A stretch of DNA of 33,310 nucleotides, taken from positions 1-33,310 of the forward strand of contig RBNJ01000316.1 of the NCBI GenBank assembly GCA_003990765.1, in the 5' to 3' direction. The notes beneath the pieces are model-generated. The model saw only the letters and a list, made by a program, of their open reading frames with translations, was not told the DNA's origin and made no database searches. The DNA comes from Jimgerdemannia flammicorona (lineage: Eukaryota). Of this stretch, positions 3,073-33,310 are shown one piece after another. How positions within the stretch are numbered: position 1 is the stretch's first letter; the number at the start of each line of letters is the position of its first letter. The position numbers and the translations under genes are program-made.

Positions 3073-3104
<32 letters not shown>

Positions 3105-9993: not shown

Positions 9994-10102
9994 AGGATCG
10001 ACAAATAGAACAATAGACTTCAATTACCTTCCAATCTTTCCTCCTTTTTTTTTCCCCTCACGAAGCCCCATCGGCTGTTTTGTACTATAGTTCTTTGCCA
10101 TT

Positions 10103-10104
<2 letters not shown>

Positions 10105-10182
<78 letters not shown>
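10105..10182. repeat. Poly(T) tract
   Basis: About 78 nt of nearly pure T. Confidence 0.9.
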
Positions 10183-10183
<1 letters not shown>

Positions 10184-10705
10184 GTTGGTTTGGTTTGTTT
10201 TTTGGTTTGTTTTTTGTTTTTCATTTTGCTTCATCCATAGCCATTTCCCCGCACATTCGTCTGTCGCTTAATTTGCTTTGCCCTCCTTTTCGAACCGTTC
10301 CTCTCATGTCAAAAAAAGCTCATATCCTTTTGCTGATGTTTTTCTGTAATAAAAGTGCGCAACCCGATGAATCGGTACGAAAAGTTTGATTGAGCTCGAA
10401 AAACAGCTTTAGTGAACGAGGCCAAACAATTGACCATGTTGCCCGTTGTGAATCTAAACTAGCTGAATACCAGTCAACGCAATATTTCAACGCGACATTT
10501 TTTATTTTATTTTCAAATGGTGCTTTTTATTCTCTTGTGGATCGACAGATGCAACTTGAAGGATGATCCCAACAGCACACGCTCGTAACAAGAAACCGAT
10601 GTAAACGTAAAACAAAATAGGACGGGGAAATGCAGCAAAAGCAAATGATGTAGCGCAACCTGTATATGAAATAAGATAAACCAGGATAAAAATGAAATGA
10701 AATAC

Positions 10706-10839: not shown

Positions 10840-11812
10840 CATGAGAGTAATAGAAAGAAATATAATAGTAAAGAGTAATATAATATAAATACTACTAAAA
10901 CTGACAATAATCAAGATGGAGGCATATTATATATATAAGTAATACATACTGAGTATCTGAAAAGACATTTATATCTATACCTAAGTTATATATTTTTGAG
11001 TCAGCAAAAAATAATAATGTCAATATAAGCAAAGTATATACTAATATAACTAATAATAATAATATACAATCTATAGATTGAGATACTATACAATATATAA
11101 CAGTCTACTGAAAATAGTTCTCTATATATGAGTTCTTTAAGTATTTAATACTAATTAAGTTAGATAATAATAATATTAATATATATTTCTATAAGAGTGT
11201 TATAAAGTCTGCTGGTACTTTTTAGGATATACTATATACTCTAAAGATAGAAAAGAATCTCCTCTCAATTAGCAAAATAATAGTATATAGTGATAAAGAA
11301 ATATATATATACTCAATGGGAGTAATAATATATAGCTTAAAGAATAATAAGGAGATTATAATAGTATTGAAATGAGGTAATCTTTATATGATCAATAGTA
11401 TGTCAAATAGTATAAAAGTCTCTATATATATAATAACTATACCTGATGTATCTAATATATAGTATTAATACTTAGAACATATAAGTAATATGAGTCTAGA
11501 AAAAATGATTAAAAACAGATCTATAGGAGAATTATTAGTAATATATCTTAAGAGTTTCCATATTATATATAGTAAATAAAGTATTCTGATAACTATTTCA
11601 GAAATAGATAAAACACATATCTGATATATTTGATTTAATCTATATAGATATACAGTCTAATGTATACTATTTTCTATAGTAGGAAGAGATATTTCAAAAT
11701 TAAATATATAAAGTATATATATATATATATCTTAATAGTAAAAAGTGAGACCCTAGATAAATTCGAAGAGTTCAAAGTAATTATAGAGAATAAAACAAAA
11801 TATAAAATATAT
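10840..11812 (+). mobile_element. Degenerate Ty1/Copia relic A, left part (gag C-terminus, protease, pre-integrase, integrase N-terminus)
   Basis: Colinear with the young Copia at ~16.4-17.5 kb. Example: KSETLDKFEEFKVIIENKTKYKI versus KSEALEKFGEYKAIIENETGRKI. Ends abruptly at the Gypsy TG. Confidence 0.85.
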
Positions 11813-13257
11813 TGTAACAGTAATCCCAGAATAATGACATCAGCTTAGAATACAAGAAGATCATATGATATATGAGATGAGTAATAATGACCAACTGTGA
11901 GTCATTGTGACCACAGTATGGGTATCTTGAGGAATATAAAAAAAAGAATCAAAGAACTGCAGTAGCAGCAACTAATAAACCCACCAATTCCAAATAGCTC
12001 AAAGACTTACCACAAATAAAATATCTACTACTCACTAAACCTCAAGGTCAAGGAACTATCAAGATATCTCAGTAGAAGAAAGAATATTCCAAGACATCAG
12101 AAGAGCCATGATGACTAGCTCAAGAAGGACTCCTAGTGTCAACCTGGGTACTGGTGACTCTTATTATTATATTCTCTACTGTCATGAAATAGAAACAAGG
12201 ATCACCATTGCTACCGAATACCTTCAAATATGACAGGAATGAAATAGGAAACCTCCTCTACTGGAAGTTCCCACAAGCCAGTACTCAAGAGCTATAAGAT
12301 GCTATTTCTATAGATATATATGAAATAAGGACAGCTAAGAAGATACATCAGATCTTCAGGTATGTACTATAATCAATCTCCAACTTAGAGTATATTAGAG
12401 TCTCAGATTTCAGAGATCTATCAGCCCACCATATCAATACACTAGAAGCCAGAGTAGCTACAGAAGTCCAGTCTACTATTACTCTTAATAGTGACAAAGT
12501 AGAAGACTTCTGGTATCCCATCCTCTAGGACAACCCAGACTAATTCCTATAAGAATTGATCTTAGTATTCCAAGGCCCAAGCATCCAGATTAGATCTCTC
12601 CAAGATTCCACATTTGTCCCCTATTTTGTGGAAGAGAATCTCATTCCTTGTTCCTGTCACTGCCAAATGTGATGACATCATCAGTGATGACATCATCCCA
12701 TGTAACATATATGAGATGTGCATCAATAACAAATTCATAGACCTCATCTCCTTCGAAGACATCCTGACCTCTGATGAGGATGAAGCCTCTATGGTCTTGA
12801 ACATTCTGCTCTAAAGTTCTGATGTGACACTGAATTGTACCAGTACTGGTATTCTGATGTGATACTGAATTATTCTAGTACTATTTTCCTATATCATCGA
12901 AATTATACTAGTATTCTGAACCTGTACAACCATCAGTACCAACCCTGGAACTTAGTAGTTTTTCCTGTTCTGGTATTTTATTTTAGTTATTATTTAGCTT
13001 TATATCTTAGCAACCATTGAATTATATTTTATATAAATACTCCTCTTATTTCCTCTGAAATAAAGTCAGTCAAGTTCACTTATATACACTTCCTTGTAAG
13101 CAATCTAAGAGATAACAAGACAGTTCAAAGATAAGAAGTTTGAGGACTATAAGATCTTGGGAAGGCACTCCAATAATAACTTACTTATAACAAACTTAAG
13201 TTAGTCTAAGAGATATATCTTGACATATTTAAAGAACTCAGTGACCACTACATAATA
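11813..13257 (+). repeat. Gypsy A 5' LTR (~1445 bp)
   Basis: Direct repeat of 24264-25810. TATAAA at 13032, AATAAA at 13059, followed by act-TGGTACCC (PBS). Confidence 0.9.
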
Positions 13258-13260
13258 ACT

Positions 13261-13280
13261 TGGTACCCATTGGCTGGTGA
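13261..13280 (+). promoter_or_regulatory. Primer-binding-site-like sequence of Gypsy A
   Basis: TGGTACCCATTGGCTGGTGA lies 3 nt after the LTR; the sister element has TGGTGTCCATTAGCTGGTAA at 28900. Cognate tRNA not assigned. Confidence 0.7.
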
Positions 13281-13383
13281 TTCAAGATGAATCCCTCACT
13301 TTCAAGCTGAAAAACAAATAACCACCACAACAACTACCCTGATTACAAGAGTAACCCCTATAAGAATTCAAGATAAGATAGAA

Positions 13384-15248
13384 ATGTATCCTCTCACATT
13401 CTATGGATATGTATACTACTGAAGAGTCAATCCTGACCTTCATTGAAGACTTTGAAAAATTTATCACTATACAGGCTCTTTATATAGATGTGCAATTGAT
13501 CCTTCTACCAGTCAGCCTCAGAGGACCTACCAGAGACAAGTTCAATGCAGCCACTATTGCTGATAATGGTGCAGCCAAACTTGCCAATATGAAGACCTTC
13601 CTCAGAATAATATACTATACTGAAGAGATCAAGCAAGCTCTCAAGGATCAACTCAACACTATCTGCCAGGAACTTAGTGAAGATTCCAACTCATTCTATA
13701 CCTGAATCTGCCACCAGATTGTCTTAGCTGGCTATGATGATGCTCTCAAGAAATAAATAGCAGATTCAACCTTCCTCAAAGAAGTTCACCCTTAAATTTC
13801 TCTAGCAATCTGATCTACCCTAGCTGCACTGACCCTTGATCAGAAAGTAGTCTTTATATAGAGATATTGGACTGCTAGACACTCTGCTGAACACTCAATG
13901 GAGAAAATAACTGGTATCAAGATGGAGTCATCAAAGCCAACTAGTATCATACCTGCTATAGTTGTAAACAGACAACTATCCCCACCTATCTCCAAGACAA
14001 CCAAAGCTGACCCAGTGGAGGAACTTACCAAGCAGTTTGCTGAGATGACTACACACCTTGGTGATGTTGTTAGAGAAGTCTAAAGTGCCAACAGGAGACC
14101 AGTGTGGAGATTTGCAGCTGCTATAAAATAATGCAATATCATATACTTTAGATGTAAAGAAGAAGGCCACTATACAAAGAATTGCATAATCAAAATAAGA
14201 TGCAAAGCCCAACTAAGCAATGCTAGCAGAACTAGAGAACAAACCAATATAGTTGTCATTGAGAAGATTGGTGATACTGATGATGAAGAATACTATGAGG
14301 AGCTTGAATTCTACCCTACTACTGAAGATACCAGAACCCAGTCCAAGCCCTATGACAAGAAGAGCAACAGCAAGCCAGTTGGAAGACCAAAGAAGACTCT
14401 AGCTGTCACTATTCAAAGTAAGACTCAATCCAAGGAGATTGATCAAGATATGGAGTTAGATGAAGCTACTCACCAAATCATTGAAGACACTACTCTAGTC
14501 TCAGGAGAAAGTAAAAGCAAGAAGAAACAGAAGCTGCACAAGACCAAGATCCACCAGTATGATATCTATAAGAATCTTAAGGAACAGAAGGTCAATACTA
14601 CTTTTGGAAAGCTAGCCAAAGTTCCTGCCTTCAGACAGTAGTTGAGAGTAGGACTTGTAACTATTACCAAGAATTAAGAGTACAAGATTGTAGAAGCTCA
14701 CAATGTACAGGAAGAATCAGAAGACTCAGGTGAAGAATCTGAAGACCAGTGCAAGATATCAGCCTATACCCCATATCAGATTGAAGATTATATCTTTGAT
14801 ACTATCATTGATACCAGTGCTGGAGGATGCCTTATGAGTAAGAAGACAATTGACCACCTAGGCTGGGACATTGAAGAGTCCACCAAGATAGTCTATATTA
14901 TAGTAGATGGTACACTAGCTATTCTCCTTGGCAAAATCCAAGAAGTCCCTATTAAGATAGGAGGAGTTACCATCCTAGTAGATGTGATTGTTACAAGCAC
15001 CACCAACTATAATATTCTCATTGGTAACCAATGGCTTCATAAGACCAAGGCCATCATTGACCTCAATGCCCAGAAGATATAGATCAACTATAGAGGAAGA
15101 AAGGTATGAGTCTCTATCAATATCCACAAAGGAGTCCTACCAGATATAGAGGAAGGAGATGAAGAGAACACATAAGTCTTTATGCACTTAGTGAATAAGA
15201 ACAAGAACAAGAGTAAGACACCCAAGCTTACAGATGAGCAGTGATACA
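13384..15248 (+). pseudogene. Gypsy A gag and aspartic protease (disrupted)
   Basis: Gag-like ILTFIEDFEKF...SLRGPTRDKF, zinc-knuckle remnant CKEEGHYTKNC (~14150-14190), protease IIDTSAGGCLMS...ILIGNQWL. Many stop codons. Confidence 0.85.
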
Positions 15249-15414
15249 TGTTGAGATTTCTAGCTAATCAACTCGGTATGTAGCTCACGTGAAGGTGGTG
15301 CAGCTCACATGTGAGGACGTCATCAGTAGAAACGTCATCAACACGTAAATATGCGCTTCGCACATATCAATAAAGATTGCTCCTTTATCCCTCAAATTCC
15401 AGTATTTCACAATA
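15249..15414 (+). repeat. Young Copia 5' LTR (166 bp)
   Basis: TGTTG...CAATA; 152/166 identical to 20369-20534. Confidence 0.95.
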
Positions 15415-15426
15415 GGTTATGAGCCC
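15415..15426 (+). promoter_or_regulatory. Copia PBS of the half-tRNA(iMet) type
   Basis: GGTTATGAGCCC directly after the LTR, resembling the Drosophila copia-type PBS GGTTATGGGCCC. Confidence 0.85.
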
Positions 15427-15488
15427 TGGTTAGTGGCTAACCAAAACACCTCTTTAATATACGCTACACTACTCTATGCGCAAAAGAG

Positions 15489-18400
15489 ATGTCGAATACG
15501 CCAGGGAGTCCCTCGGTGGGTGCCGGAACAGGTACCGGAACGGGTGCCGGAATGGGTACCGGAACGGGTACCAGAACAGCCCCAGCGGCAACTACTATGA
15601 CCGTCACGACGACGTCAATTCCAGCCCCAGCGGCTATTACGACAGTGCAAACGTCCAAGAGGTCCATCTCTGTCTTCGATGGGAAATATTATGCAATCTG
15701 GGCCTATCATATGAAGAATCTCCTTATCGAATGTGGCTTGGCGGACTACTGGAAGCCGCAAGCACAGATTACGGGATACAATGTCGCTAACGACGAGAGA
15801 GCCTTACGCGAGATTACGTTCACACTATCTAACGCACAACTGAAACACGTCATCTACACTACAACAGCAAACGAAGCCTGGGAGATCTTACGCGATCTAT
15901 ACCAAAAGGACTCCGCCTCGAACAGATTCCACTTGAAATCGCAACTATTCAGCCTACGGATGAAGTCCAAGGAGACAATCTGTAAATACGCCGATCGGGT
16001 TGACGAGCTGACGAATCACATTAACGCTCTAAGCGCACCAGCGGATTACGTCAAGGACGACGACAAGGTCCTGGCCCTTACACGTGGCCTTCCCGAGGCG
16101 TATAATATCGTTGTCATCGCGATGAGGGAGAGCGGTAAGCTTTCGGACTACAAACACGTGATAACGAGCCTCCAGAACGTAGAATCTCAGGCACAGGAGA
16201 ACAACAATGACGAAAGAGCACTCTACGGCTCGCGTGGATGAGGCAAAAAGCAGCGCAAGGGTCAACACGGCAAAAGCCAGCGTGACAAAAGCCAGCAAGG
16301 CCAAGACCAATCAGAGAAATTCGACGGGAGCTGCTATTATTGCGGCAAGTATGGACACCATGCGAATGAATGCATGAAAAAGGAAAAGGACAAGGGTGGA
16401 AAGAAAGGAAAGAGTGGCAAGCAAGCGAATAGTGCAGATTCTAACGCTGATAAGGGAGGATTGTTCTTCACCAATGTAGATTCGGACCCTTTTGGACCAG
16501 TGAAAAATGCGTAAGCCACCCCGACATCTACGAGATCTAGTTCTACATCCACCAGCGCCAGTTCTACCTGCAAATGCGCTTACTCGACATCTACGGAACC
16601 CGACATTCAGAATACTTTTCAAGGTGCGAAAAGTGGCGGTGACATAAACAGCACGTGCGCCAGCGCCAGAGACGAGTATACACCAAGCGCTAACATTACA
16701 TGCGACGAAGAGGACATCTGGCTCCTAGATTCGGGCGCATCCCAGCATATGACTTCACACCGCAAGTGGTTCTCTACATATGAACCCTTTGACAACCCCG
16801 TGCATATCAGATTGGGCGATAATAAGGTTATATATGCTCAGGGGAAGGGCAACGTCAGCATGTATTTGCATGGAAACATTAAGGAACCCTACGCGACCTT
16901 TATGGATGTACTGTATGCTCCAGGGATAGGAAAGAACCTCTTCTCGATGGGTCGAACACTAGCACGAGGGGATAAGCGAATCTCAGGAACATGCAATGGC
17001 GTGAAGATATACGATCTCGACGGCAAAGAAGTATTAATGACCAGGAAGCATGGATACTTATACGCAATAAACGGAATGCCAAGTGGCACAGCTGCGGTGA
17101 ATGCAGCGTGGTCTGGAACGACCAGCGTAGTGTATACCTGGCACTGGAGACTCGGACATATCAGCCCGACAAGCCTCGAACGTATGATAAGGAATGGTTC
17201 AGTGAGCGGACTCCCGGACAACTTATGCCCGGACCATATGCCATGTGATGATTGCGCGATAAACAAGGCCTGTCAACAACCCTTCCAGGAACAGATGAAA
17301 CGAGCCTCAGGGATACTCGATTTGGTATACTCAGACGTATGGGGACCTGCGAGAAATAAATCACACTCTGGGAAGAAGTATTTTATTATGTTCATCGACG
17401 ACTATATGTGCAAGGTCTACGTATACCTTATGGCGGCGAAGAGCGAAGCTTTGGAAAAATTCGGAGAATACAAGGCTATCATCGAAAACGAGACCGGACG
17501 TAAAATTCGAGCACTACGCTCAGATAATGGTAAGGAGTACGTTAATAATCAGTTCAAGAACTTCTTGACGAGACACGGGATAAAACACCAAACGACGGCT
17601 CCCTATACGCCTCAGCAGAATGGCGTAGCGGAGCGTTTTAACCGAATGGTAGTGGAGATGGCCCGTACAATGCTCAACGCGGCCGATCTATCGAAGCCCT
17701 TTTGGACCGAAGCGGTGAATACGGCGGTGTATATACGCAATAGGTGTATTTCTCGAGCTCTAAGCAAGGATGCTTGTGGCAATGATCAGCAATCCAGGAA
17801 TGAGGATAATGCTACGCCACATCAGCTATGGAGTGGAAATCGGCCCGATATCTCACATCTATGCATATTCGGAAGTGAAGCCTACGTGCTAGATAAAAGC
17901 AGAAATAAGGATAAGTTTGATCCAAAGGCTACTAAGCATGTGTTCCTCGGGTATAGCAACGGTTGCAAAGCGTATAGGCTGTAGAATCCAAGGAAGCGGA
18001 GAATTGTTAACTCCCGTGACGTTACATTTAAGGAACCCAGTGTACAGGATTCACACGTGAATATTGAGAAGACGACTACAATTATACATACGCTTCCGGG
18101 AATGCCCCTGGCAATCAACCTTACACCTCCAGCGGCCAGTACTACGCCTCCGGCGAGTCCTCCGGTCACACCCCTGAAGACACCCCCGAAAATGTCACCT
18201 ATCCCGGCGAGGATTCCTTCGCCACCTCCTGGACTGAGGATAACTGAGATAAGGGATAGCGATGACGAGACTAGCGAAGCGGAGATGATTCTCCCATCTA
18301 CGAAAGGTAAACAAAAGCGCAAATCCAGGATATTGGATATGGATCTAGGAGACTATTGGAATGTTCTGAAGACCTGACGCAAGCATCACGTGAACTATGC

Positions 18401-20030
18401 TTGCGAGTGCGCATACTTGACAACGGTGGATCCACGATCATATGACGAAGCCGTATCCTCCCCTGATAGCAAGGAGTGGAAGTGAGCGATGGATGAAGAG
18501 TATAATTCGCTCATCAGCAATGGTACTTGGGATCTAGTACCTCTTCCGAGGGATCGTCAAGCTATAGGATCTTGTTGGGTATATAAAGTTAAGCGTCAAA
18601 GCAATGGAAGCGTAGAGCGGTACAAGGCACGCTTCGTTGCTAAGGGATATTTACAGGATTACGGCGTAGACTACGACGAGACGTTCTCTCCCGTATTCAA
18701 GCTCACTTCTCTATGCATACTACTGGCTATCGGCGCCGAGTACGATTACGAAATACAGCAGATGGACATTAAGACTGTGTTCCTGAACGGTGACGTAGAT
18801 ACGGAACTATACGTCCAACAGCTGCAAGGATACGAACTATACGATGGGCAGAAAGAGCTCGTATGCAAACTACGTAAAGGGTTATATGGAATCAAGCAAG
18901 CGGCGAGACTATGGAATCGGAAGATCGATCAATATCTGCTTGACAACGGATTTCGGCGGTGCGAAGCGGATCCATGCATATATATGCGACATACATCCTC
19001 AGGAACGGTATACTTGGGGATATGGGTCGATGACATCATAATCGTTGGCAAGAGGAGCCAAGTTAACAAAGTAAAAGCTACGCTATGCCAGGAATTCGAG
19101 ATGATAGACTTAGGCGATGCGTCCTTCTTATTGGGAATAGCGATTACACGTGACAGAAACAAGCGCGCTATACACCTATCCCAAGCCACCTACGCTAAGC
19201 AAGTACTTGAATGATTCAGGATGAGCGATTGTAAGCCAGTGGCGACGCCAATGGAAACTACGACGAGGCTAAGGAAAAGTGACCCTACGCCCGACAAGAA
19301 CATCCCCTATAGACAAGCGGTGGGATCCCTTATGTATCTTATGTAAGAAACGTGACCAGACATCTCCTATGCAGTAAACAAAGTGGCGCAGTATGCCTCA
19401 TGCTATGACAACTCGCATTGGACGGCAATTAAGCGCATATTCAGGTACATCAAAGGAACAGCGGACTATACGCTCAGTTTGGGCGATGATAAAGGACAAA
19501 GCGGGAGTCACATGCATGTCTCCAGAGCTTGCGACGCTGATTGGGCCAGCGACCTCGACGACCGGCGCTCTACAACCGGATATCTCTTCCATATCGGCAA
19601 AGGGGTTATCTCGTGGCAAACACGTAAGCAATCATCGGTGGCCACATCCTCTATGCAAGCGGAATATCAAGCATTGTCCACAGCAACTAAGGAAGCCGTA
19701 TGGCTATGGAAATTACTAAAGGAATTAGGGTATACTCAGAAATGAGACTCTACGCTGATCTTACAGGATAATCAATCTATGATTGCATTAGCAAAGAACC
19801 CTATACATCATGCAAGGACTAAGCATATCGACATTCAACATCATTATATAGGTGAATGCGTGGAAAACGGTACTATATGCCTGGAATATATGCCAACGGA
19901 GTCTATGACGGCGGATTCTCTTACGAAGGCCCTTCCAAGGCCAAAATTCGAACACTGCGTGCAAGGGATGTGTCTTACGAGCAACCCTACGCTATGGCCA
20001 GGATTCAGGGACCACCAACAACAACAATAA
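15489..20030 (+). pseudogene. Copia Gag-Pol polyprotein (~1513 codons) with 9 in-frame stops and no frameshift
   Basis: FDGKYYAIW gag, CYYCGKYGHHANEC knuckle, WLLDSGASQHM protease, WHWRLGH/CDDC, YSDVWGP..RSDNGKEY..NGVAER integrase, YKARFVAKG..QMDIKTVF..WVDD RT, CDADWA..AEY..DNQS..KHIDI RNase H. All ORF pieces share one frame. Confidence 0.95.
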
Positions 20031-20368
20031 TCGACGCAAATCATGAGACTTTCCTAACAGCAAAAAGCCTCCAACATATACATCTTACATCCCCTATGAA
20101 CATTGCACATCCGTACTGCATTTCTATTTGCAAGCAAGCAAGCAAACATTTCAAGCGGACATCCATTTCGGACATTCGGACTGTTTATCAGTTCCTAGCG
20201 CACCCTTTCTACTATGTATTCTACCTATTTTAGTGCTTATAAGCAGGGAATTCGGACATTTTTAGGTTGATAGATAGCACCCATTCTACCTATCATTTCC
20301 TGCATTGCATTCATTAGTTAGTTAGCATGCATTTCTGCAGTTTGAGCGCATATCTCATTGAGCGGGAG

Positions 20369-20534
20369 TGTTGAGATTTCTAGCTAATCAACTCAGTATG
20401 TAGCTCACATGAAGGTGGCACAGCTCACGTGTGAGGATGTCATTAGTGGAAATATCATCAATGCGTAAATATGCACTTCGCGCATATCAATAAAGATTGC
20501 TCCTTTATCCCTCAAATTCCAGTATTTCACAATA
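20369..20534 (+). repeat. Young Copia 3' LTR (166 bp), preceded by PPT TTGAGCGGGAG
   Basis: Direct repeat of 15249-15414, followed by TSD ATACA. Confidence 0.95.
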
Positions 20535-20760
20535 ATACAACATGATCATTGATGGCTATATCCCTCAAGGAAGATGCCCCTATGGTATTAGGATGTACTG
20601 CTCTGAACACCTGAATGACTGCTGGTCCTATATCAGTGAAGTCAGGAAAATCTGCTAACAGAAACATAAGTAAAGAGCTACTGAAGTAAAAAGGAAAGCT
20701 GAAGAAGATGACCAGCTCCCCAAGCTTCAAGCTAATAGTGATGATAAGGAGGAATAAGAA

Positions 20761-21183
20761 TCAGATATCACCCTCAAGGTCAAGAAGTTTTACCCTGAAG
20801 CTAAGATCCCAGAATACAAGACTGAAGGAGCCATAGGAATAGACCTTGCCAGCATTCAAGATGCTACTCTTGAACCACAGACCACCACCCTACTTGGTAC
20901 TAGAATTGGAGTCAAGCTACCAGAGAATCATACTAGAATTATCAAGACCAGGAGCAGTCTGGTCAAAAGTGAAATCTCAGTTAAAGGAGGAGTAATTGAC
21001 CCTGATTACACTGGCAAGATCTTCCTTATAGTCAGAAATCACAACCCCATCACCCCATTCAAAGTCAAGAAGCATGACAGGATTGGTCAGATGCTGATCC
21101 ACGAAATCAAGAAGCCCAAGATCACTGAAACCATCAAACTCATCAAGACCAAGAGAGAAGAACAAGACTTTGGATCTACTGAA
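20761..21183 (+). pseudogene. dut: Trimeric-type dUTPase domain within Gypsy A pol
   Basis: Stop-free frame lacking an upstream ATG: KTEGAIGIDL (motif I), KTRSSL (II), GGVIDPDYTGKI (III), DRIGQM (IV), REEQDFGSTE (eroded V). Confidence 0.92.
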
Positions 21184-21399
21184 AGAGGAGTCTATGTATG
21201 CTACCATTAAGATTACTAAACTTGAGCACAAGAAAGACAGGGACCAGAACAAGCACACATATACTATTGGAGACAACTTTCCCCTAGAAGAACAACTTCT
21301 CAAGATCCTGTACCAGAATGAAGGAGTACTTGCTACAGACTTCAGAGATATCTACAATCAAGAACTCAAGTACTATCATAAAGTTGACACTAGTAATAC

Positions 21400-23900
21400 C
21401 AAGCCCATCTACCAGAAAGCCAGACCTATATCACCTGCTTACAGAGAATAGCTGCAAGCAGAACTCAAGGAAATGGAAGAAGCTAGAATCATCAAGCAAG
21501 CTATCAGTCCCTGGGCTTCACCTATTGTCCTTGCCCTGAAGAAAGGAAGTAAGCCTGGAGAGTTTACACCAAGACTCTGCATTGACTACAGAAAGCTCAA
21601 TGCAATCATCAAGAAGGATAGGCAGCCCTTGTCAAATATTCAAGAAATCCTTACTATTCTTGGAAGCAAAGCCAAATACTATACCACCTTGGATCTGTTC
21701 TCAGACTTCCATCAGATCAGTCTCACTCAAGATGCCAGTGAGAAATCAGCCTTCATCACATCTGATACCACCTATATCTCCTGCGAATGCCATTTGAAAT
21801 GTACAATGCCCCAGCAAGTTTCTAGCAAATAATGAACAGAGTCTTCAGCAATGAGATTGGAAAATAGCTCTTTGTCTATATTGATGATATGATCATATTC
21901 AGCAATACTACACAGAAATATGTCAATTACATATAGCTAGCTCTCAAGAAGCTCAAGGAGCATGGCCTTTACATCAAGCCCAAGAAATGTAAGTTTGCAG
22001 CTCAGGAAATTGCCTACCTAGGACACCTCATCAACCAGACCAGAATCCACACAGACTCCATAAAGATTGAGACTATTACAGCCTACCTGAGACCCAGAAC
22101 AATCACAGAAGTCCATGTCTTCCTTGGACTGGCCAGCTACTACAAAAGATTCATCAAAAGATACTCCAATATTGCAGCACCTATCTATAAGCTACTAAAG
22201 AAGGAAACTAAATTCAAATGAACTAAGGAATACCAAGAAACCTTCAATGAACTCAAGACCAGATTGATCCAAGCATCTATTCTCAGAAGATCAGATTGGA
22301 ACCTAGAATTCATCCTACAGATAGATGTAAGTACTGTAGAACTTGGAGCAGTCCTAGCTCAAAAGAAAGATGGACATGAATATGTTATCTCTTATGTAAT
22401 CTAAGATACCTATAGAGTAGAACAGAACTATAAGTCATACAAGCTCGAATGCTTAGCAGTAGTTTGGGCAGTAGATAAGTCCCACTACTACCTAGCTGGG
22501 AAACACTTTACTGTTTAAACAGACCATTCTGCTCTTGCTTGACTATTCTACACTCTGAATTCCAAAGGAATATATACCAGATAGATCTACAGGCTACAAG
22601 AGTATAACTGTACTGTCAAGCACTGCTTAGGAAGAACCAATACTAATGCTGATGTACTCTCAAGGATACCCTGAAATACTCCCATCAAGACTATTCAATA
22701 TAAATAAGAAGTTATACTATGGATTAATCAGCTATCTTGTGCAGTAGAAGATACCCAACCACCTCAAACTCTGGACAATCACCATCATCAACTAGATTTA
22801 GAAATAGTTTGAATAGATAACACTATACTCAGAAAAGGAAGAAAGCTAGTAATACCTGAATACAAGAAGTATCAAGTAATGAAGGAAGTATATAAGCAAG
22901 GATACCTAGAAGGAACCAATACATATGATAAGGCAAGAAGAACTATGTGGTGGCCCAAAATAGAAGAAGAGCTATACCAATTTGTCAAAGGATGTGACAA
23001 GTGCCAAAAACAGAAATAAGATCAGCAAGACCAGGCACCTGGGTCATCAAGAATTGAGCCTATCCCCTTCCACCACATTATAATGAATATTATTGGACCA
23101 CTACCAGTAACACTATCAGAAAACCACTATATTATAGTTATTGTAGATCTCTTTACCAAATAGATAGAAGCAGGAGTATTACAAGAAGCCAATATTCTGT
23201 CTATAGCTAACTTCCTGTACTAAGAAATCATCTGCTGCTACAAGACACCAAAGCAAATCACAACAGACCATGGTACAGAATTTATCAATGGATTCTACAA
23301 GATAATGTATCAGAAATACAAGATTCAGCACATCAAGACTACTGCATACCACCCTCAAGGAAATAGATAGATAGAGAGAACCAATAAGACTCTTAAGAAC
23401 ATTCTGGCGAAGATCTCAGAGATATATGAGAATTGGGATAACTACCTCCCAACTGCCCTCTCTGTTCTATAAGATATATAGTCACAGAGCACACACTTTA
23501 CCTCAAGTAAACTGCTCTTCAGAGAAGAAGATTCTGATGAAACCTCAGCTACAAATCTAGACCTAACTTGGAGATGGGTTGATACAGAAATCTGAAGACT
23601 ACACTAAATCAGAAAGAAGGCTAAAGATTATATTATCAAGTCACAAGCACTGATAAGGAAAAATGCAGAAAAGAATCACAAGACCCTAGAACCTATCCAA
23701 ATCAGAGAAAAGGTTCTACTATATTGAAATATAGTAGAAGTCTTATGGTTGTGAAAACTAGAGCCCAAATGGAAAGGATCCTTCTATGTGTAAGATACAT
23801 ATCAAGAGAACTACCTTCTGGCTTAGAAAAATCACAGGGACTATACTGTCTATCATGGTACATAGAAACAGACTCAAGAAGTACTATGAACCTATATAAG
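21400..23900 (+). pseudogene. Gypsy A reverse transcriptase, RNase H and integrase (disrupted)
   Basis: RT: SPWASPIVL, RLCIDYRKLN, LDLFSDFHQI, VYIDDMIIF. RNase H: FILQIDVS, LECLAVVWAV, TDHSAL, NADVLSR. Integrase: CDKCQ, IIGPLP, TTDHGTEF, TTAYHPQGN. Confidence 0.92.
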
Positions 23901-24274
23901 AGAAGCAAAATGTAATGATCACCTATGAGGTTCTAGTCTGTGAATCATAACAGCATATCTTGTAACCAGCAGGCTATCTGTCTGGACCATTCTCTAAGAG
24001 ATATGGTACCAGCAACTACTCATTCATGAGACTTTCGAAGCCAGAGGAGTTTGAACCATCAACTGATTAATCAAGATCAGAATCAGGCCCTTGCTCTATA
24101 TGAAGGGAGTAACTCTTCACCATCATGCCAAAATACAAAGAGAAGACACCAGCTCATAAATACCACTTTTCAACCCCTTGCTAGAGGTTATGGGATCAGC
24201 AAATTTTTCAGGACTAGACTAATGAACAAGGACATTCAAGAAGATTCTTATTCAGGAGAAAGATGTAACAGTGA

Positions 24275-25321
24275 CCCCAGAATGATGACATCAGTACAAA
24301 AGACAGTCTTTTCTTGCAAGCTACTAGATTGGAATACAAGAAGATCATATGGTATATGAGATGAGCAATGATGACCAACTATAAGTTATTGTGACCACAG
24401 TATGGATATCTTGAGGAATATAAAAGAAGGATCAAAGAACTGCAGTAGTAGCAACCAACAAGACCCACTAATCCAAAAATAGCTCAAAGACTTACCATAA
24501 ATAAAATGCCTGCTGCTTGTCAAATCTCAAGATCAAGGAACCACTAAGACACCTCAGTGGAAGAAAGAATATTCCAAGACATCAGAAGAGCCATGAGGAT
24601 CTACTCAAGAAGGACTCCTAGTGTCAACCTAGGTACTAGTGACCCTTATCATTATATTCTCTACTGCTATGAAATGGAAACAAGGATCACTATTGCTACT
24701 AAATGCCTCTAAATGTGGCAGAAGTATGAAATAGGAAACCTCCTCTGCTGAGAGTTCCCACAAGCCAGTACTCAAGAGCTACAAGATACCATTCCTATGG
24801 ATATATGTGAAACAAGAATAGCTAAGAAGATACATCAGATCTTCAGGCATGTATCATGATTGATCTCCAACTTGAAGTATGTTAGAGTCTCAGATTTCAG
24901 AGACCTGTCAGACCACTGTATCAATGCACTAGAAGCCAGAGTGGCTACAGAAGCCCAGTCCACTATTACCCTCAACAGTGATAAAGTAGAAGACTTCTAG
25001 TATCCCATCCTCCAGAACAACCCAGACCAATTCCTGCAAGAATTGATCTCAGTATTCTAAGGCCCAAGTATCCAGGTTAGATCTCCCCAAGACTCTATAT
25101 TTGTTCTCTATTTTGTGAAAGAGAATCTCATAGACTAGAGAGCCCCAGACCTCCTTGTTCTCACTGCTACTAAATGTGATGACATCATTGGCAATAATGT
25201 CATCCCATATAATATATGCAAGATATGCAATAATGATGAATTCACAGACCTCATCTCCTTCAAAGACATCCTGACCTCTGATGAGGATGAAGCCCCTATA
25301 GTCTTGAATATTCTGCTCTAA
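24275..25321 (+). pseudogene. Degenerate U3-encoded accessory ORF of unknown function (~349 codons); second copy in the 5' LTR at ~11824-12814
   Basis: One frame without frameshift in the 3' LTR. It has 11 internal stops, 6 of which are CAA/CAG/TGG sense codons in the 5' LTR copy. Codon style resembles the element's pol. Confidence 0.72.
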
Positions 25322-25323
25322 AG

Positions 25324-25428
25324 TTCTGATGTGATACTGAATTATACTAGTACTGACATTCTGATGTAACACTGAATTATGCCAGCACTAGTATTCTAAT
25401 GTGATACTAAATTATTCCAGCACTATTT
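25324..25428 (+). repeat. 35-bp tandem repeat, 3 copies in the 3' LTR (2 copies in the 5' LTR at 12817-12886)
   Basis: Units starting TTCTGATGTGAYACTGAATT at 25324, 25359 and 25394. Confidence 0.85.
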
Positions 25429-25810
25429 TCCTATATCACTGAAATTATACCAGTATTCTAAACCTATATAACTATCAGTGCCAACCCTAGAACTTAACAG
25501 TTTTTCCTGTTCTGGCATTTTATTTTAGTTATTATTTAGCTTTATATCTTAGCAATTATTGAATTATATTTTGTATAAATATCCCTCTTATTTCCTCTGA
25601 AATAAAGTCAGTCAAGTTCACTTACATACTCTTTCTTGTAAGCAATCTAAGAGATAATAAGACAGTTTAAAGATAAGAAGTTTGAGGACTATAAGACCTT
25701 GAGAAGGCACTCTAATACGAACTTGCTTATAATAAACTTGAGTTAGTCTAAGAGATACACCTTGAAGAAAATCTGGTATATTTGAAGAACTCAGCAACCA
25801 CTATATAACA

Positions 25811-25955
25811 ATAATATACTATATGCTCAGATAATAGATACAAATATATCAATAGTATATTTAAGCAGTTCTTGAGGAAATACAGTATATATTATTATAC
25901 AACAGTATTATATGTTATAGTAAAATAATATAGCCAAGTAATTTAACAATATGGC
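25811..25955 (+). mobile_element. Copia relic A, continuation of the integrase after the Gypsy insertion
   Basis: ctatatgctcagataatagatacaaatatatcaat...ttaagcagttcttg aligns to young-Copia ctacgctcagataatggtaaggagtacgttaat...ttcaagaacttcttg (RSDNG region). Confidence 0.8.
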
Positions 25956-27250
25956 TATTAAAATATCTTAGTTATAGCAACTTAATATATATATAGTAAT
26001 ACAGCCTATCCCTGACTATATCATTATATAAATATTATTAATATGTATAAAAGTATATAAGTTAGTATTAATAAACAATACTCTCTACTTCTCTACTCTT
26101 CTAAATATTTTATAACAAAATGTTATAAGTCCTGCTAGTGAAAGCAGATAATAAATATATCTCTAATATATATATTATACTATACTATAATATCAGTCAA
26201 TATAAGTAATATATAAAATATGAGCCAACCAAGTAGTATAAGTAAAATAGAATCCAGAATAGATACCAGTAGCATAAGTATACCTAATATGATAGTCATG
26301 ACTATAGTAGTACTGATGATGATAAAGAAGATAATTTCTGTCTTCAATAGTAAAGATTATACTATATGAGTATACTATATAAAAAATCTCTTAAAAGAAT
26401 ATAGTTTAGAAGATTACTAAAAGCCACAGGTATAAGTAATGATATACAAAACTATGAAATATTGTAGAATACTAAGAGAGATTATATTCACTCTTTTGAA
26501 TATATAAATAAAACTTATCATCAATACTATAATAGTAAATAAAGCCTGGGAGATCTTATATAATCACTACCAGTAGACATTTGCATCAAACAGATTCCAT
26601 CTGAAAGTACAACTGTTTAATCTCTAAATAAAGTCTAAGAAGAGTATCCAAGATTATACCAATCATATTAACAATCTGGCAAATCAAGTGAACTTTCTTT
26701 CTATGTTGACAGAACTCATCAAGAATGAAGACAAGGTTCTGGCCCTTATATTTAGCCTTTCCAATATATATAATATAGTTGTTATTACTATAAGGAAATC
26801 TAGTAAACTATCAGACTATAAGTATATTATCATAAGTCTTTTAAATGAGTAATTAAGACTAAGTGGCAATGATAACAATAATGGTAATAAAAAAGCCTTC
26901 TATAGAATATATGGGCAAGGCAAAGGTAAGCCAAGTAAATGATGAGACCAAGGCCAGTAATGTGAAAAATTTAATAGTAAATACTTCTACTATAATAAGT
27001 ATATATATTAAGAGTAAGATTACAATCATAAGAAAAAGAAAAAGAGTAGTCAAGATGAGTAATATGGACAATAGTAGATAAATGTCATAGATAATAATAA
27101 CAATAGTAATAATAAAAGTAGTAGAAATAATGAAGGTTTGTTTTTCACAAAAGCAGTGACCTATCTATATACAGAAGGAGTTATAGGAATAGAAAATATT
27201 GATGTTAATACTAGCATAAATATAAGCTATATATCAAGCTCTTATATATA
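25956..27250 (+). mobile_element. Degenerate Copia relic B: eroded 5' LTR, PBS remnant and gag
   Basis: tattaaaatatcttag resembles tgttgagatttctag; PBS remnant gttataagtcc at ~26122; gag colinear with 15489-16470 (for example aaagcctgggagatctta and gacaaggttctggccctta). Confidence 0.8.
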
Positions 27251-27269
27251 TAGCAAAGAAGTTTGAGCA

Positions 27270-28397
27270 TCCTGTATCTAGGAATGAGATCTGATATTTT
27301 ATATACTATAAATAAGATGGTATAGTACTCATCATGTTATGTCAATTTATATTAGAATATCATTAAGAGAATTTTTAGATATATTAAGAAATGTCATACT
27401 ATATACTTACTCTCAATAGATTAAACAAAAGTAATAGTAATAATAATAATAATAATAATAATATACAACTATCTGATATATGTAATACTGATTGGACAAG
27501 AGATTTAGATGATCACTAATCGATAACTGGATACTTCTTTTGATTAAATAATAAAGTGTTTTATAGTAAATATATAAGTAGAATTCAGTAGTAATATCAT
27601 CTATATAAGTGAAGTATCAAGTATTATCTATAGTAATAAAGTAAGCTATTTAACAATATCAACTATAAAAGAAACTCAGATTTAATAAGAAATAATACTA
27701 TACTTATGTATCTATCAGAATAATTAGTTTATAATTGTTATGATAAAAAACTCTATTTATTATAGTAAAATTAAATACATTGATATACAATACTATTATA
27801 TAAGAGAATATATGGAGAATAGAACTATATATTTGGAATATATCCCTATAGAATATATAATTATATATTTACTTATCAAAGCCCTTCTGAGATCAAAATT
27901 TAACCAATATACTAAAGAAATAAGTCTTATAATGAATTATATACCATTAATAAATAATTATAGGATATTTTCATAATAATGAAAAGAAAGCAGAAAAATA
28001 ATACAATATATCTTTCTATATCTCTCTCTTCAAGTATTATATTATAATTATTCATCAGTTCTCCTTTTTCTTCTTCTTTTATATTTGAGATTTTCTACTA
28101 TTAAGATCTATCTATATCTTTTATTTTCACTATAATTTCTTATATTTTAAGTATGGGTAGATAGTATTCTTTTAATATATTTGAAGTTATTTTATAGTTA
28201 TTACTTAGTTATATTATATTCTTATATATTATCTCATTGAGTAAGAATGTTGAAATTTTTATTATTTTAATATCTTGATAATATGACTTATATGTATATA
28301 ACTATGTCATTTTTGAGTTATATCACTCAATGTGTAAATATATACTATCTGGAGTAATAAATAATATTTCTCTCTTCTCTCTACTCTATATTTCAAC
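27270..28397 (+). mobile_element. Degenerate Copia 3' end: RT C-terminus, RNase H, PPT and 3' LTR (~28248-28397)
   Basis: KNSIYYSKIKYIDIQYYYIRE versus KNPIHHARTKHIDIQHHYIGE; tatctcattgagtaagaa|tgttgaaa versus tatctcattgagcgggag|tgttgaga. Confidence 0.82.
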
Positions 28398-28402
28398 TAA
28401 GA

Positions 28403-31400
28403 TATAATATTTTCAAATAATTAAAAATCTTCTCTTAATATTAAAATATTCTTATCTTTTCTCAGTACTAAGTATTATAATGGTTGATCTGAATTAGAAA
28501 CATAAATCAGGAGAATTAGATATTTGATTACAATACCTGAACCCAATTCACAATATAGCATAGCCATATAAATAGCAGTCATAGAACTTTGCTACTAGAG
28601 AATACTTTGCTACTAGCAAATACTTTACTACTAGTGAATACTTTGCTATTAGCAAAATAACTCACAATATAGCCACCTTATAGCTAGCAAACTTATATAA
28701 ATAAAGAGTGAATAAACCTCAGATTGCAATAGTTCAAAAATAAAGAGAAAGTAAAGGAACTAGTAAGCCTACAGGTAGATATACTTTGAACTTATCCACC
28801 CCTGCATTCCAAGAACTCTGCAGAGTCAAAGAAGATCAAGTTTTCAAGATACAGAAATCTGATATACTTCTAAGGTTAAGCATCTACTATGTTACAACTT
28901 GGTGTCCATTAGCTGGTAATTTAAGATAAATTCCTCACTTTCAAGCTGAATAATAAACAATCACCACTACCCAAATAATCATACAAATTGAACTAAGATA
29001 TCTAGACAAGATAGATATGAGATCACCAGTATTCCATAGTTATGCTTCAGATAAGTCAATCATCATCTTTATTGATGATTTTGAGCAATATACTACTATA
29101 AGGAGCCTGATAGCAAGGCAACAAGTAACCCTCATGCTCTTCAGTCTCTGAGGACCAGCAAGAGCAGTATTCACAGCTGCAACCTATGTAAGAAATAATG
29201 ATAATGCTATATTAGTAGTTCAGAAGACCTGACTCCAAGCCACATACTATATAGATGAGATCAAGCAGACACTAAAGGATCAGCTCAATACAATATACTA
29301 AGGAATGAGTGAGGATCTAAATACATTTTATACTAGAATCCAATATCAGATAATCCTTATAGATTATACTACTACTATCAGGGATTAAGTAGCCAAAGCA
29401 ACCTTTATGAAAGGAATCTACTCAGAGATAGCCCTGGATATCTGCTCATTATCAATAGTTCTAGATCTGATACAGAAGGTCACCTATGCTCAGCAATACT
29501 GAATAATCAAACACTCACAAGACTATATAATAGAGAGAGTCACTAGAGTCAGAATTGAAGCACTTAAGGCAACTAGCATAATTCCTATCATAGTGATTAA
29601 TTAAAACACACCTCAACCAAGAGCTATAGAATAATAGAGAAATAGTGACCCTATAGAGGAACTTTTCAAGAAGTTTGCTGAAATGACAGCCCACCTAGGT
29701 GATGTGATAAAGGAAATTAAAGGAAGAGACTGCTGCCCAGTTCAGAAATTTGCCACTACCTCAGACAAGAAGAGAGGTATCTGCTATACTTGTAGAGAAG
29801 AGGGCCACTACTTATATAAATGTATAAGTAAAACTAAGTACAAGGTATAGCCAAGCAATGCTACTCAAAATAAGGAACAGATCAACATCATTATCTTCAA
29901 GAAGATCAGATAATCAGATGAAGAGGAATGGAAAGTCTACTCTACTGAGACTATTAGGAAAGATGTCTGTAAACAACCCTACAAGAGACCACTAGAGAGA
30001 CTCAAGAAGAACCCTGTGAAAAAGCAGATAGAAACTGCTACAGAAAGTCAAAGTAAAGAAATAGATTAAGATATGAAGCTATAACAAGCTGTTCAAGATA
30101 TCATTCAAGAAACCACTCTAGTCAGTAAAGGAGAAAAGAAGAAGAAGCTTTGCAAAACCAAGACCTTCAAGTATGATATCTTCAAGGACCTTAGTTAATA
30201 AAAGATCAATATAACCTTTGGCCAGCTAGTAGAAATATCCACATTCAGATAGAAAATAAGATATGGACTTACTGAGACAACCAAGGAGCAAGGTTGGAAG
30301 ATAACTAAGGCCAACAATGTTCAAAAAGACTTAGGAGAAGAGAGAAAAGACAACTGTAAGACCTCTGCCTATGTAATCTGTCAAATTGAGGACAGAGTCT
30401 TTGAGGCTATCATTAATATAAGAGTAGGAGAATGTCTCCTTAGTAAGAAAGCAGCAGACCACCTAGATTGGGAAGTTGAAGAAGCAACTAAATTAGTGTT
30501 CATCATAGTAGATAGTACAAGAGCCACATCTCTGAGAAAGATCTGAAATGTCTCCATCAAGTTTGGAGGAGCAACTATTCCAGTGAATATAATTATAACC
30601 AATGTCACCAACTATGACATCCTCATTAGCAATCAATGGCTTTATAAAGTCAAGATGGTAATTGATCTAAATGCTCAGAAGATGAAGATTATCTACCAAG
30701 ACCAGAAGATGTGAATTCTGATTAATATCAATAAAGAAGTGCTGCCTAAGATAAAGAAAGAAGAAAGTGAGCAAGAAGAAGCCTATATAGTGACTACTTA
30801 GAAAAAAAAGAAAAAAGTCAGATGGATCAGTGAAGAAGAATGGTGCAAGAAGATTGCAGAAGGATATACTACAAGGAGTCTGCCCCCACAGAATCAAAAT
30901 GTACTATAGTGAGCATATCAATGACTGCTACCAATATAGCATTGGTATTAGAAAGATCTATCAGGAAAGAAGACAGAAGGCTCTCAAAAAACAGGCAAGA
31001 GAAGAGGAGGAGAAGGAAAAGGATGATGAACCATCAGCCCTCCTGAAGGATAGTGATGATGAAGAAGAAATCAAGGTCAAGATTTGGAGGATCTACTCTA
31101 ATACAGTTCTACCAGAATATAAGTCAGAAAATATAGCTGAAATAGATATTGCTACAGTAAAAGAAACTGTACTAGAGCCCCAGACAACCACCCTACTTAC
31201 AACTGGTCTGGAGATGACTATTCCAAAGAACTATATCAGAATCCTCAAGATAAGAAGCAGCCTAGCTAAGAGTGAAATCACAATTGAAAGAGAAGTCATT
31301 GATTTTAATTACATTAAAGAAATATTACTTATTGCTAGAAACTATAATATTTCCAATCAAGAAGAAGAACTGACTGATACAGATATTGATCTTCCCAGTT

Positions 31401-32140
31401 CTTCAGTCAAGGATTATAGAAGTCAAGAAGTTGGATGAAACAGAAAGAGAAAAGAAAGGATTCAGATCCATAGGAAGAGGAGTATTCATCAGTACTAAGA
31501 TTACTGAACTGGACTATAAGAAGGAGATAACTATGAATAAACATAGCTACACTATTGGAAATAAATTCCTACTCAAGAAGGAACTCAAGAAGATACTCTA
31601 TAAATTCAAGAATGTCCTAGCCACAGATTTTAAGGATATCAAAAAAAAAAGACCCCACACTACTATTATGACATAGATATGTATAAGAGATACTGAACCA
31701 ATCTACCAAAAAGCAAGACCAATACTGCCAGCCTACCACAAATGACTCAGAGAAGAAATCAAGCAGATAGAAGAAGCCAGTATTATCAAAGAAGCCAGCA
31801 GCCCCTGGGCCTTCACCAGTTGTACTAGTCTCAAAAAAAGAAAGTAAGCTAGGAGAATTGCCCCAAGACTCTGTATAGATTACAGAAAGCTCAACTTGGT
31901 TACTAAGAAGGATTGTCAACTATCACCCCTCATCAGTGACATCCTTGTAATCTTGAGAGATGAAGTACAATACTACAGCATCTTGGACTTATACTCAGAA
32001 TTCTACCAAATTGGCCTCACTGAAGCAGTAAGTGAAAAGTCAGCCTTTATTACCCCAGATGGAACCTATGTCTACCTGTGAATACTATTTGGAATGTATA
32101 ATATCTTTGCAAGCTTCTAGTGAATGATGAACAAAATCTT
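28403..32140 (+). mobile_element. Ty3/Gypsy element B (sister of A): ~0.5-kb 5' LTR, gag, PR, dUTPase, truncated within RT
   Basis: LTR ends GTTACA (28896) followed by act-TGG PBS; CYTCREEGHYLYKC knuckle; protease remnant ~30400-30650; dUTPase remnant ~31070-31475 (LEPQTTTLL..IRSSL..VIDFNY..REKKGFRSIG); RT SPW..RLCIDYRKLN. The left LTR boundary is inferred from TATAATA as eroded TGTAACA. Confidence 0.88.
28586..28657 (+). repeat. 18-bp tandem repeat, 4 copies, in the Gypsy B LTR
   Basis: ACTTTGCTACTAGNRAAT units at 28586, 28604, 28622 and 28640, upstream of TATATAAATAAA (~28693). Confidence 0.85.
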
Positions 32141-33310
32141 CAAATGCTTCTTTCTCTGCTATCTTACTGGTCACAAGGTTTGGTAGGTGACCTTCTAAGT
32201 CTCCTTTCCCCTATTATTACCCCCTCTATCTTGGGTTGGTTTGCTGTACCTGCATGGGCATGGTGGGAGGAGGTCAATGGTGATGAGTTGCCCCTTTATT
32301 AGTGTTGGATCAGTGTCTTCTCCACTTTTTGTAGTTTCTGGTGCCTTCAGCTATATCTGGAGTGCATCCATTTTGGTGTAGTGCCTTCTTCCTTTTGCCA
32401 TTGCCAATAAGGTAGTGTCTTGGTGTATCTTGGGCTATGTAGAGAGTCGGCCAACCTTGGGCATCAAGTGCTCAGTGTAGGTTACCTACAGGTCTTCAGT
32501 ACCTATGGTGGGGCCCTCTGGCTTTGGCGAGCTTCCCAGCAAGCGCAGTTCTGGCATAGGTGACTGCTTTTTGGGTGTTGTTGGGATGGGAGGGGAGATG
32601 GCCATCACAGATAGGAGGAAGGGTGATAACGGTAAACCAGTAGGGTGTCAGGCTGGGGGTGGTCATTGGGGCTGGGGCAGGTGCTGCTTTGGTGGGGCCT
32701 TTTGATTGGTACAGCATGGTTAGGTGGTAGGTGTCACTCTCAGCTTTTGGCAGTCAGCGGGGTTGGGCCCCAGTCATCAGGGGGGGTTGGGGGGCCCAAG
32801 GCTACCCATTTCAGGTATCTTGGCTGTACTTAACTAGAACCAGGAGCTGATATGGCAATGTGATCAAGGCCTGCAGGCTTGAGTAGTGGAGTATTGGGAG
32901 TTTCCTCCCACCTCATGTGTAAGTCCTTTACTCACCTCGACTGGGAGAACCAGGCCCTATCCACTATATTGTGCTTTGATGAGAGTTTTTCTTTGTCTGT
33001 CATTCTCTTTGGGGTGGCAGGGGCTATTTTATTCAGCTCAGACATAGTCTTGTACATACGTTGGGTTCTCAGGCATGTACTTTCAGTTGTTGGCATATGG
33101 TTGGGTTTTCCCTGATGGTAGGGAGAGCATGGTGCACAGAATGAGGTGTGGGCCAATATAGGCCCTACTGTGCCTAATATGGTTGAGCTGCTGGACAATA
33201 GCTAGCCTAGGTTAATGGGGGGGCAGTGCTTGGTGGGTAGTGGGGAAGGGTTTTGGTCTATATAGTCTAGGTTCCCTTCCAATAAAATTCCACAGGACAT
33301 GAGTCCATTA
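32141..33310. mobile_element. Unidentified CpG-depleted repeat interrupting or truncating Gypsy B RT; runs off the window
   Basis: Sharp compositional switch (G/T-rich on +, the opposite skew to the other elements) with very few CpG despite moderate GC. No recognisable domain. Confidence 0.4.

Follow-up and report, generated by a model that had tools for sequence, protein, structure and literature searches.

The whole of contig RBNJ01000316.1 (33,310 nucleotides, forward strand), one of 35,354 contigs in the 231-Mb Jimgerdemannia flammicorona assembly GCA_003990765.1, was analysed here and is called the window. It carries the AP-2 mu gene and its neighbours in unique DNA, followed by a nest of Copia and Gypsy long terminal repeat (LTR) retrotransposons that have decayed by C>T change. 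This decay is real, genome-wide in the families sampled and found outside the lineages with characterised repeat-induced point mutation (RIP); it is most likely a methylation scar with the sequence context of a DIM-2-type enzyme, not canonical RIP. In a protein search, the AP-2 mu exon was 100% identical to a J. flammicorona protein, with runner-up matches of 80–85% in Mucorales, Umbelopsidales and Glomeromycotina. An earlier reading of the letters alone (the sequence-only reading) had argued on the condition that the host is a Mucoromycota fungus; this match bears that out and, as judged from protein similarity, places the host in the Endogonales (Mucoromycotina, Mucoromycota) rather than among RIP-competent ascomycetes.

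The gene-rich DNA provides an unaffected baseline. Thirteen RNA-supported introns have a GC content of 0.445 and a CpG observed/expected ratio (o/e) of 0.97, and introns and intergenic DNA together retain GC 0.44 and CpG o/e 0.97–1.13, a test of composition rather than of mutation rate. A copy search with positions 8400–10450 returned a single genome match, the segment itself. A poly-A tract separates the genes (1.5–10.4 kb) from the repeat nest, and the repeat boundary at ~10.7 kb is sharp: the final CpG before the repeats lies at 10654, with only 4 CpG over the following 4.6 kb.

The nest records the order in which its elements arrived (Table 1). The young Copia sits inside Gypsy 1, flanked by a 5-bp ATACA target duplication, and Gypsy 1 sits inside an old Copia relic whose translation (stops written as X) is similar to the integrase of the young Copia. 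That integrase reading resumes on the far side of Gypsy 1, so the nesting is real; no clean target duplication of Gypsy 1's own was recovered at its ends. The Gypsy 1 LTR has many copies in the genome, and many young Copia family copies, 94–97% identical, persist as well.

Table 1. Layers of the repeat nest and the control DNA in the window.
Feature	Positions	Strand	Properties
Unique gene-rich DNA (AP-2 mu gene and neighbours), unaffected control	1500–10400		GC 0.48, 541 CpG, CpG o/e 1.04
Old Copia relic 1, left part (pre-integrase and integrase start), oldest layer	10840–11812	+	GC 0.205, 1 CpG, TpA o/e 1.35
Gypsy 1 5' LTR	11813–13257	+	Partner 24264–25810; starts TGTAAC, then TGG primer-site-like sequence
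Gypsy 1 gag-protease region, stop-broken	13258–15248	+	0 CpG in ~2.0 kb; aspartyl protease Pfam matches at 14678–15079
Young Copia, youngest layer	15249–20534	+	166-bp LTRs 15249–15414 and 20369–20534; gag, integrase and reverse transcriptase (RT) Pfam matches
Gypsy 1 pol (dUTPase, RT, downstream pol), broken	20535–24263	+	PF00692 E 1.9e-24, RVT_1; CpG o/e 0.04
Gypsy 1 3' LTR	24264–25810	+	Pairs with the 5' LTR
Old Copia DNA: relic 1 integrase continuation, then second relic related to young Copia	25811–28760	+	GC 0.232, 1 CpG
Second old Copia relic, parts	gag ~26334–26821; RNase H region ~27596–27900	+	
Gypsy 2, related family ~66% identical to Gypsy 1, truncated	28850–32140	+	0 CpG in 3,291 bp; dUTPase match
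GC-rich tail with CpG loss	32141–33310		GC 0.50, CpG o/e 0.10

Decay deepens with nesting age. GC content drops from 0.47 in the young Copia to 0.36–0.39 in the Gypsy elements and 0.21–0.23 in old Copia DNA, and CpG o/e is 1.06, 0.00–0.07 and 0.03–0.10 in the same layers. The sequence-only reading had described this layering in outline, and the counts agree: genes keep CpG (o/e 1.04 in unique DNA vs 0.00–0.07 in Gypsy segments), the old Copia relics have collapsed to TpA-rich DNA (GC 0.205–0.232, TpA o/e 1.24–1.35), the GC and CpG steps follow the layers, and the young Copia has indeed lost some CpG, with 30 CpG C>T changes over 1,421 bp relative to its family, though its o/e is normal. Its codon example holds only in part. 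The peptides HHARTKH and YYSKIKY, offered as a case of CAT>TAT, are both present and the first two tyrosine codons read TAT against CAT, but the last is TAC. Per 500 bp, 30 old Copia family copies (GC 0.18–0.26) hold 0–1 CpG, where the young element has 27, and 3–17 CC+GG, where it has 55; CT+AG is unchanged or higher (55–77 vs 59). Likewise, CpT/ApG o/e is 0.84 in unique DNA vs 1.4–1.6 in old repeats.

Mutation rates were taken from the young Copia family, with direction inferred from the family copies and counts made copy by site over the 30 best-matching copies (1,421 bp). C>T accounts for 983 of 1,021 changes (96%). By context, the counts are 823/5952 at CpG, 84/4188 at CpA, 58/3737 at CpC and 18/4859 at CpT, set against 16/19871 for T>C and 22/38607 for transversions. 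Per site this gives 0.138, 0.020, 0.016 and 0.004 in the four contexts and 0.0008 for T>C, so that CpG changes ~170 times, CpA and CpC 20–25 times and CpT ~5 times as often as T>C, and CpG 240 times as often as transversions occur. The best matches are biased to similar copies; to remove this bias we also analysed 30 of the 43 matches of a motif search insensitive to C>T decay, and this sample returned the same order of contexts, as did the young Copia integrase and 3' untranslated region (UTR). In the follow-up tallies on further parts of the element, copies covering <90% of the query were dropped, which left 17, 18 and 20 of 30. A majority-based tally of old Copia was saturated and yielded false T>C, and was not used for rates. 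An apparent T>C rate of 0.028 at TpG, obtained by a triplet method, was discarded as an artefact of mis-polarised CpG sites; the later young Copia tally gives 0.0002.

Paired LTRs carry the same signature after insertion. The young Copia pair differs by 14 transitions (12 CpG-type) and 0 transversions, and the Gypsy 1 pair by 160 transitions and 10 transversions, with C/T differences at CpA in 96 of 214 sites, CpC in 28 of 86 and CpT in 3 of 196. The CpA differences that the sequence-only reading had noticed in this pair are thus plentiful, but its restriction of the process to CpG and CpA is too narrow: it missed the CpC losses, which are nearly as frequent as those at CpA, and the fact that CpT is mostly spared. 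Five same-contig Gypsy LTR pairs add up to 419 transitions and 21 transversions. With direction assigned from 29 further copies, C>T was scored 258 times and T>C 7 times, and 41 changes were ambiguous; per-site values are 0.255 at CpA, 0.217 at CpC and 0.031 at CpT.

The bases around the target matter too. In the young Copia family a 5' A promotes change (ACG 0.20, the highest; ACA 0.040) and a 5' T lowers it at both CpG and CpA (TCG 0.075, the lowest; TCA 0.008). A rust-like TpCpG preference was rejected, TCG being the least hit. On the 3' side, CAG changes less often than CAH in all four transposable element (TE) alignments. This spectrum leaves little trace in standard indices: (CpA+TpG)/(ApC+GpT) is ~1.1–1.7 in Gypsy segments, and stays at this level because CpG decay feeds CpA and TpG.

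Host genes caught in repeats provide the most direct view of what selects a target. Histone genes in CpG-normal DNA have additional copies in CpG-poor DNA, two of them without the intron of the source. From 29 matches, 7 pairs with 3 source loci entered the directional test; the count excludes loci without an assigned source gene (an H3-variant group, our loci L117–L120, L126 and L131, and L124/L130). In 4,951 bases of alignment, 258 sites have C/G in the source and T/A in the copy, and the opposite arrangement is seen 12 times, at 9 positions. Non-coding sites alone give 112 vs 9. Transversions number 13 over the full alignment. The copies repeat the transposon spectrum (CpG 171/544, CpA 49/668, CpC 32/594, CpT 6/607, T>C 12/2481). 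In distant histone paralogue pairs (~81% identical), transversions are numerous and CpT is not spared. Source genes were spared although they have homologues of 600–860 bp. With the copies decayed and the sources spared, host-gene sequence is therefore hit once it lies among repeats, and its homologue is not.

Some of these loci have histories of their own. L114 and L116 (contigs C28274 and C549) are intron-less H3 copies, 99% and 95–97% identical to the intron-containing H3 gene L122 (C830), and are recent mRNA retrocopies. The H3-variant loci (on C29566, C28574, C138, C27062, C127 and C20691) are divergent H3-like open reading frames (ORFs) whose tails are altered. In four, 1.6–2.0 kb of flanking sequence is similar at 84–97%, and these loci show C>T decay of the same kind, as though the amplification of a repeat had multiplied an H3 variant within it.

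Two features here recall canonical RIP, namely the dominance of C:G>T:A change in repeats and single-copy DNA that is, by composition, largely untouched. The preferred target is a different one, CpG (0.138) rather than CpA (0.020), with CpC (0.016) close to CpA. Canonical RIP often hits one strand. Here, neighbouring C>T changes fall on the same strand in 465 of 953 cases in the young Copia family and in 129 of 249 in the histone copies, and in the Gypsy LTR pairs 136 same-strand neighbours were observed vs 126.7±7.4 after shuffling; the top-strand share of young Copia changes is 0.55 at CpG and 0.51 at CpA/C. Hits are neither episodic nor clustered: in the decay-blind sample 395 C>T events lie within 20 bp of one another vs 407±11 when permuted, and none of the 43 copies from the motif search has >2 changes in its 29 bases; there is no heavily hit class. 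In 17 copies, linked LTRs are hit no more than the interior at CpG (52/351, 0.148, vs 483/3308, 0.146, in RT), a weak comparison given the 166-bp LTR and a whole element that is itself multi-copy. Finally, homology alone does not trigger change in both partners, as the 258 vs 12 of the seven histone pairs shows. In aggregate, these four tests, of which the linkage one is weak, indicate that this is not RIP in the canonical sense. The sequence-only reading had called the pattern RIP-like: its repeat-confined non-CpG C>T, far above T>C and transversions, stands, and the non-CG methylation defence that it offered fits best. The Neurospora sense of the word is not supported, with CpG as main target, no strand coordination or clustering, no extra LTR hits in the weak linkage comparison, source genes spared and no RID-like gene found in the fragmented assembly.

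The genome encodes candidate enzymes. PCQ and ENV motifs are present in three genes of the DNMT1 superfamily, on C8187 (L065), C11271 (L083) and C3657 (L066). The C8187 protein has DNA_methylase, DUF7893 and weak BAH domains, and its best solved relative is PDB 9baq/9bap, which we take to be Neurospora DIM-2 structures (136 bits vs 92 for DNMT1). C11271 holds a paralogue of this gene with motifs I, IV and VI present. The C3657 protein is more divergent (123 vs 116 bits, a near tie), and a protein-atlas search did not assign it to either DNMT1 or DIM-2. By similarity, assessed without a tree, at least the C8187 and C11271 genes appear clearly DIM-2-like; motif reading also suggests DNMT2-like pieces on C2181 and C58. 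No RID-like gene occurred among the 4 matches that PF00145 gave from 8 candidates or on the 3 contigs matching a DIM-2-like query, in a fragmented assembly and with no RID query run. DNMT1-RFD (PF12047) gave no match in the genome, but neither did its control, so this is no evidence of absence. A TDG-like repair gene, cut by a contig end, is present, so a loss of G:T repair is not supported as the explanation of the high CpG rate. For Phycomyces, reviews list one DIM-2 and one DNMT1 (PMC7862722, PMC13297926), compared with the three DNMT1-superfamily genes here.

Taken together, the data probably reflect position-dependent, methylation-linked C>T mutagenesis of repeat chromatin by enzymes of the DIM-2/DNMT1 family. 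Such enzymes would methylate repeat-rich chromatin, with dense methylation at CpG, a lower level at CpA and CpC and little at CpT, and methylated cytosines would turn to T singly, on both strands and steadily over time. The choice of target would be set by location in silenced, repeat-rich DNA and not by a homologous partner. CpG would be exhausted first (the Gypsy stage), then CpA and CpC (the old Copia stage), ending in TpA-rich relics enriched in CpT/ApG. The mutation order matches the Dim2 methylation order CG>CA>CC>>CT in the young Copia family, in its integrase and 3' UTR, in the decay-blind sample and in the histone copies.

Several points weigh against this explanation. Spontaneous deamination of 5-methylcytosine (5mC) runs at lower rates than the ~170-fold excess over T>C seen at CpG, and a TDG-type repair gene is present; an enzyme-assisted step or long spore dormancy may contribute to the size of the effect. 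CpG rates differ among copies of the decay-blind sample (30 copies, 0.05–0.23, heterogeneous at p 2e-4), which we read as a spread of ages; CpA/C rates are homogeneous (p 0.25). Shared descent inflates some of the copy-by-site counts, the CAG<CAH trend is missing in the histone copies (12/142 vs 37/526), and the source histone genes were chosen partly by their CpG-normal surroundings. Selection could also purge hit alleles of essential histone genes, a concern softened because hits arrive singly, so that silent sites should still record them. Moreover, DIM-2-linked mutation in Zymoseptoria and Neurospora prefers CpA and does not track methylation levels (PMC8016269, 10.1101/115501), and for this reason the match to a methylation profile does not prove the route. 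A RID-independent, enzyme-driven mutator in Endogonales, in which an expanded DIM-2-like set or a partner deaminase would convert repeat cytosines without a pairing partner, is a possibility that we regard as rather unlikely.

Explanations built on homology fare worse. The heterochromatin branch of Neurospora RIP offers a model of weak, DIM-2-mediated, homology-triggered premeiotic mutation with 1–2 hits per round, and the DIM-2-like genes with their two clear paralogues, the 96% share of C>T and rates far above background would suit it. Known cases, however, show a very strong CpA preference and spread into single-copy flanks (10.1101/115501), whereas here CpG leads, the ~10.7-kb boundary is sharp and source genes with long homologues are spared, which makes this model improbable. 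Canonical RID/Masc1-dependent RIP with an altered target preference would yield repeat-confined directional C>T and TpA-rich end products; it would also call for a BAH-less RID-like gene, absent from the PF00145 and DIM-2-query matches, and sits badly with the lack of clusters, strand runs and heavily hit copies, with the one-sided histone pairs and with the many near-identical copies that persist. We regard it as very improbable.

A methylation-independent source of change is no easier to sustain. Every element in the window has been through an RNA stage, as have at least two histone copies, and the Gypsy elements carry dUTPase, so an AID/APOBEC-like deaminase or reverse-transcription error acting on retroelement cDNA deserves consideration, yet the changes are strand-symmetric and continue to accumulate between LTRs after insertion, in step with nesting age. 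The LTR-pair and strand data already largely refute this idea, to which we give very little credence; a deaminase acting on chromosomal DNA within heterochromatin is left standing by them. Ordinary genome-wide AT-biased mutation with CpG deamination, visible only where selection is absent, draws what support it has from the small size of the unique-DNA control from RNA-type contigs, which comprises only 14 unpolarised transitions among the 40 of 252 differences listed. Against it, introns and intergenic DNA keep their GC and CpG, the non-coding sites of histone source genes are spared and, as a weak hint, 5 of the 14 control transitions lie in CpT context vs 3 of 160 in the Gypsy 1 LTR pair; we find it scarcely credible.

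Standard RIP indices overlook this erasure of repeats, and LTR-based insertion ages in this genome will come out much too old. The pattern of change further predicts the J. flammicorona methylome and points to DIM-2-like candidates. Were the enzyme-driven mutator true, repeat-directed mutagenesis would be older than the split between Mucoromycota and Dikarya and would escape the RIP screens now in use.

Further features of the window stand apart from this argument. In both Gypsy elements a dUTPase domain lies between protease and RT, at 20758–21207 (PF00692, E 1.9e-24) and 30794–31435 (E 5.7e-7). RNA-type contigs (predicted RNA) from runs X1 and X2 cover the Gypsy LTR family deeply over 11685–13716. 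Where these contigs differ from the window, C/G in place of T/A is the commoner direction (X2 across the entire window: 65 A>G/T>C and 31 C>T/G>A), which suggests that less-decayed members of the LTR family are transcribed. The window tail is probably another repeat family, because by eye it is like the sequence beside histone copy L128. Within the unique DNA, a 570-bp island at 850–1420 (GC 0.16) is possibly a fully decayed repeat relic, and a 247-aa ORF at 9250–10060 has no Pfam match; an X1 contig shows about nine differences there, the other genes being near-identical.

In our literature search, with most subscription papers outside its coverage, no paper turned up that describes this spectrum for Endogonales. 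For RIP-like defences, a kingdom-wide survey from 2025, covering 1,239 genomes, reports a common CpA preference and a restriction to few clades; it scored J. flammicorona as 'no_rip' (PMC12543289). The idea of a RIP-like process outside Dikarya has a precedent in Entomophthorales, where a RIP-index signal and a RID-like domain architecture were reported with the authors' own caveats (PMC11105155); that case concerns another phylum and rests on composite dinucleotide indices, whereas ours is a copy-level spectrum. Basidiomycete TEs show CpG hypermutation, with a TpCpG preference in Pucciniomycotina and no raised rate at other dinucleotides in Agaricomycotina and Ustilaginomycotina (PMC3318451, PMC4014442). 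They share with J. flammicorona CpG as the leading target outside Pezizomycotina, but here TCG is least hit and CpA and CpC are raised.

Neurospora crassa RIP acts pairwise and premeiotically on CpA through RID, with a DIM-2 branch (10.1101/115501, PMC12543289, PMC7862722), and constructs there receive 0–108 hits per progeny (PMC12543289). The repeat-confined C:G>T:A change ending in TpA-rich relics is common to both; the target order, the absence of bursts and strand runs, the spared partner and the lack of a detected RID set our case apart. In Zymoseptoria tritici TEs, Dim2 methylates in the order CG>CA>CC>>CT, and the Dim2-dependent change is mitotic: >95% of changes are C>T and >98% of C>T falls on CpA (PMC8016269). 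C>T-dominated repeat decay, a Dim2-type enzyme and TpA gain in TEs recur here, and the mutation order here equals the methylation order there. In that ascomycete, however, CG is little mutated, whereas in J. flammicorona CpG leads 5–7 fold, CpC is close to CpA, and only 84 of 983 C>T changes in the young Copia family are at CpA; proof there is experimental, and here it is genome inference in a Mucoromycota fungus. Another comparison is with Phycomyces blakesleeanus, whose 5mC lies almost only in repeats, LTR elements most of all, and whose TEs are methylated at CG (the highest level) and CHH, not CHG (PMC11258239). Methylation was reported there and a mutation spectrum here, and the RFD-bearing DNMT1 went undetected here in a weak search. 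The two fungi nonetheless share a subphylum and a DIM-2 homologue, and CHH methylation above CHG in Phycomyces has its counterpart in the lower mutation of CAG than CAH in the TEs of J. flammicorona.

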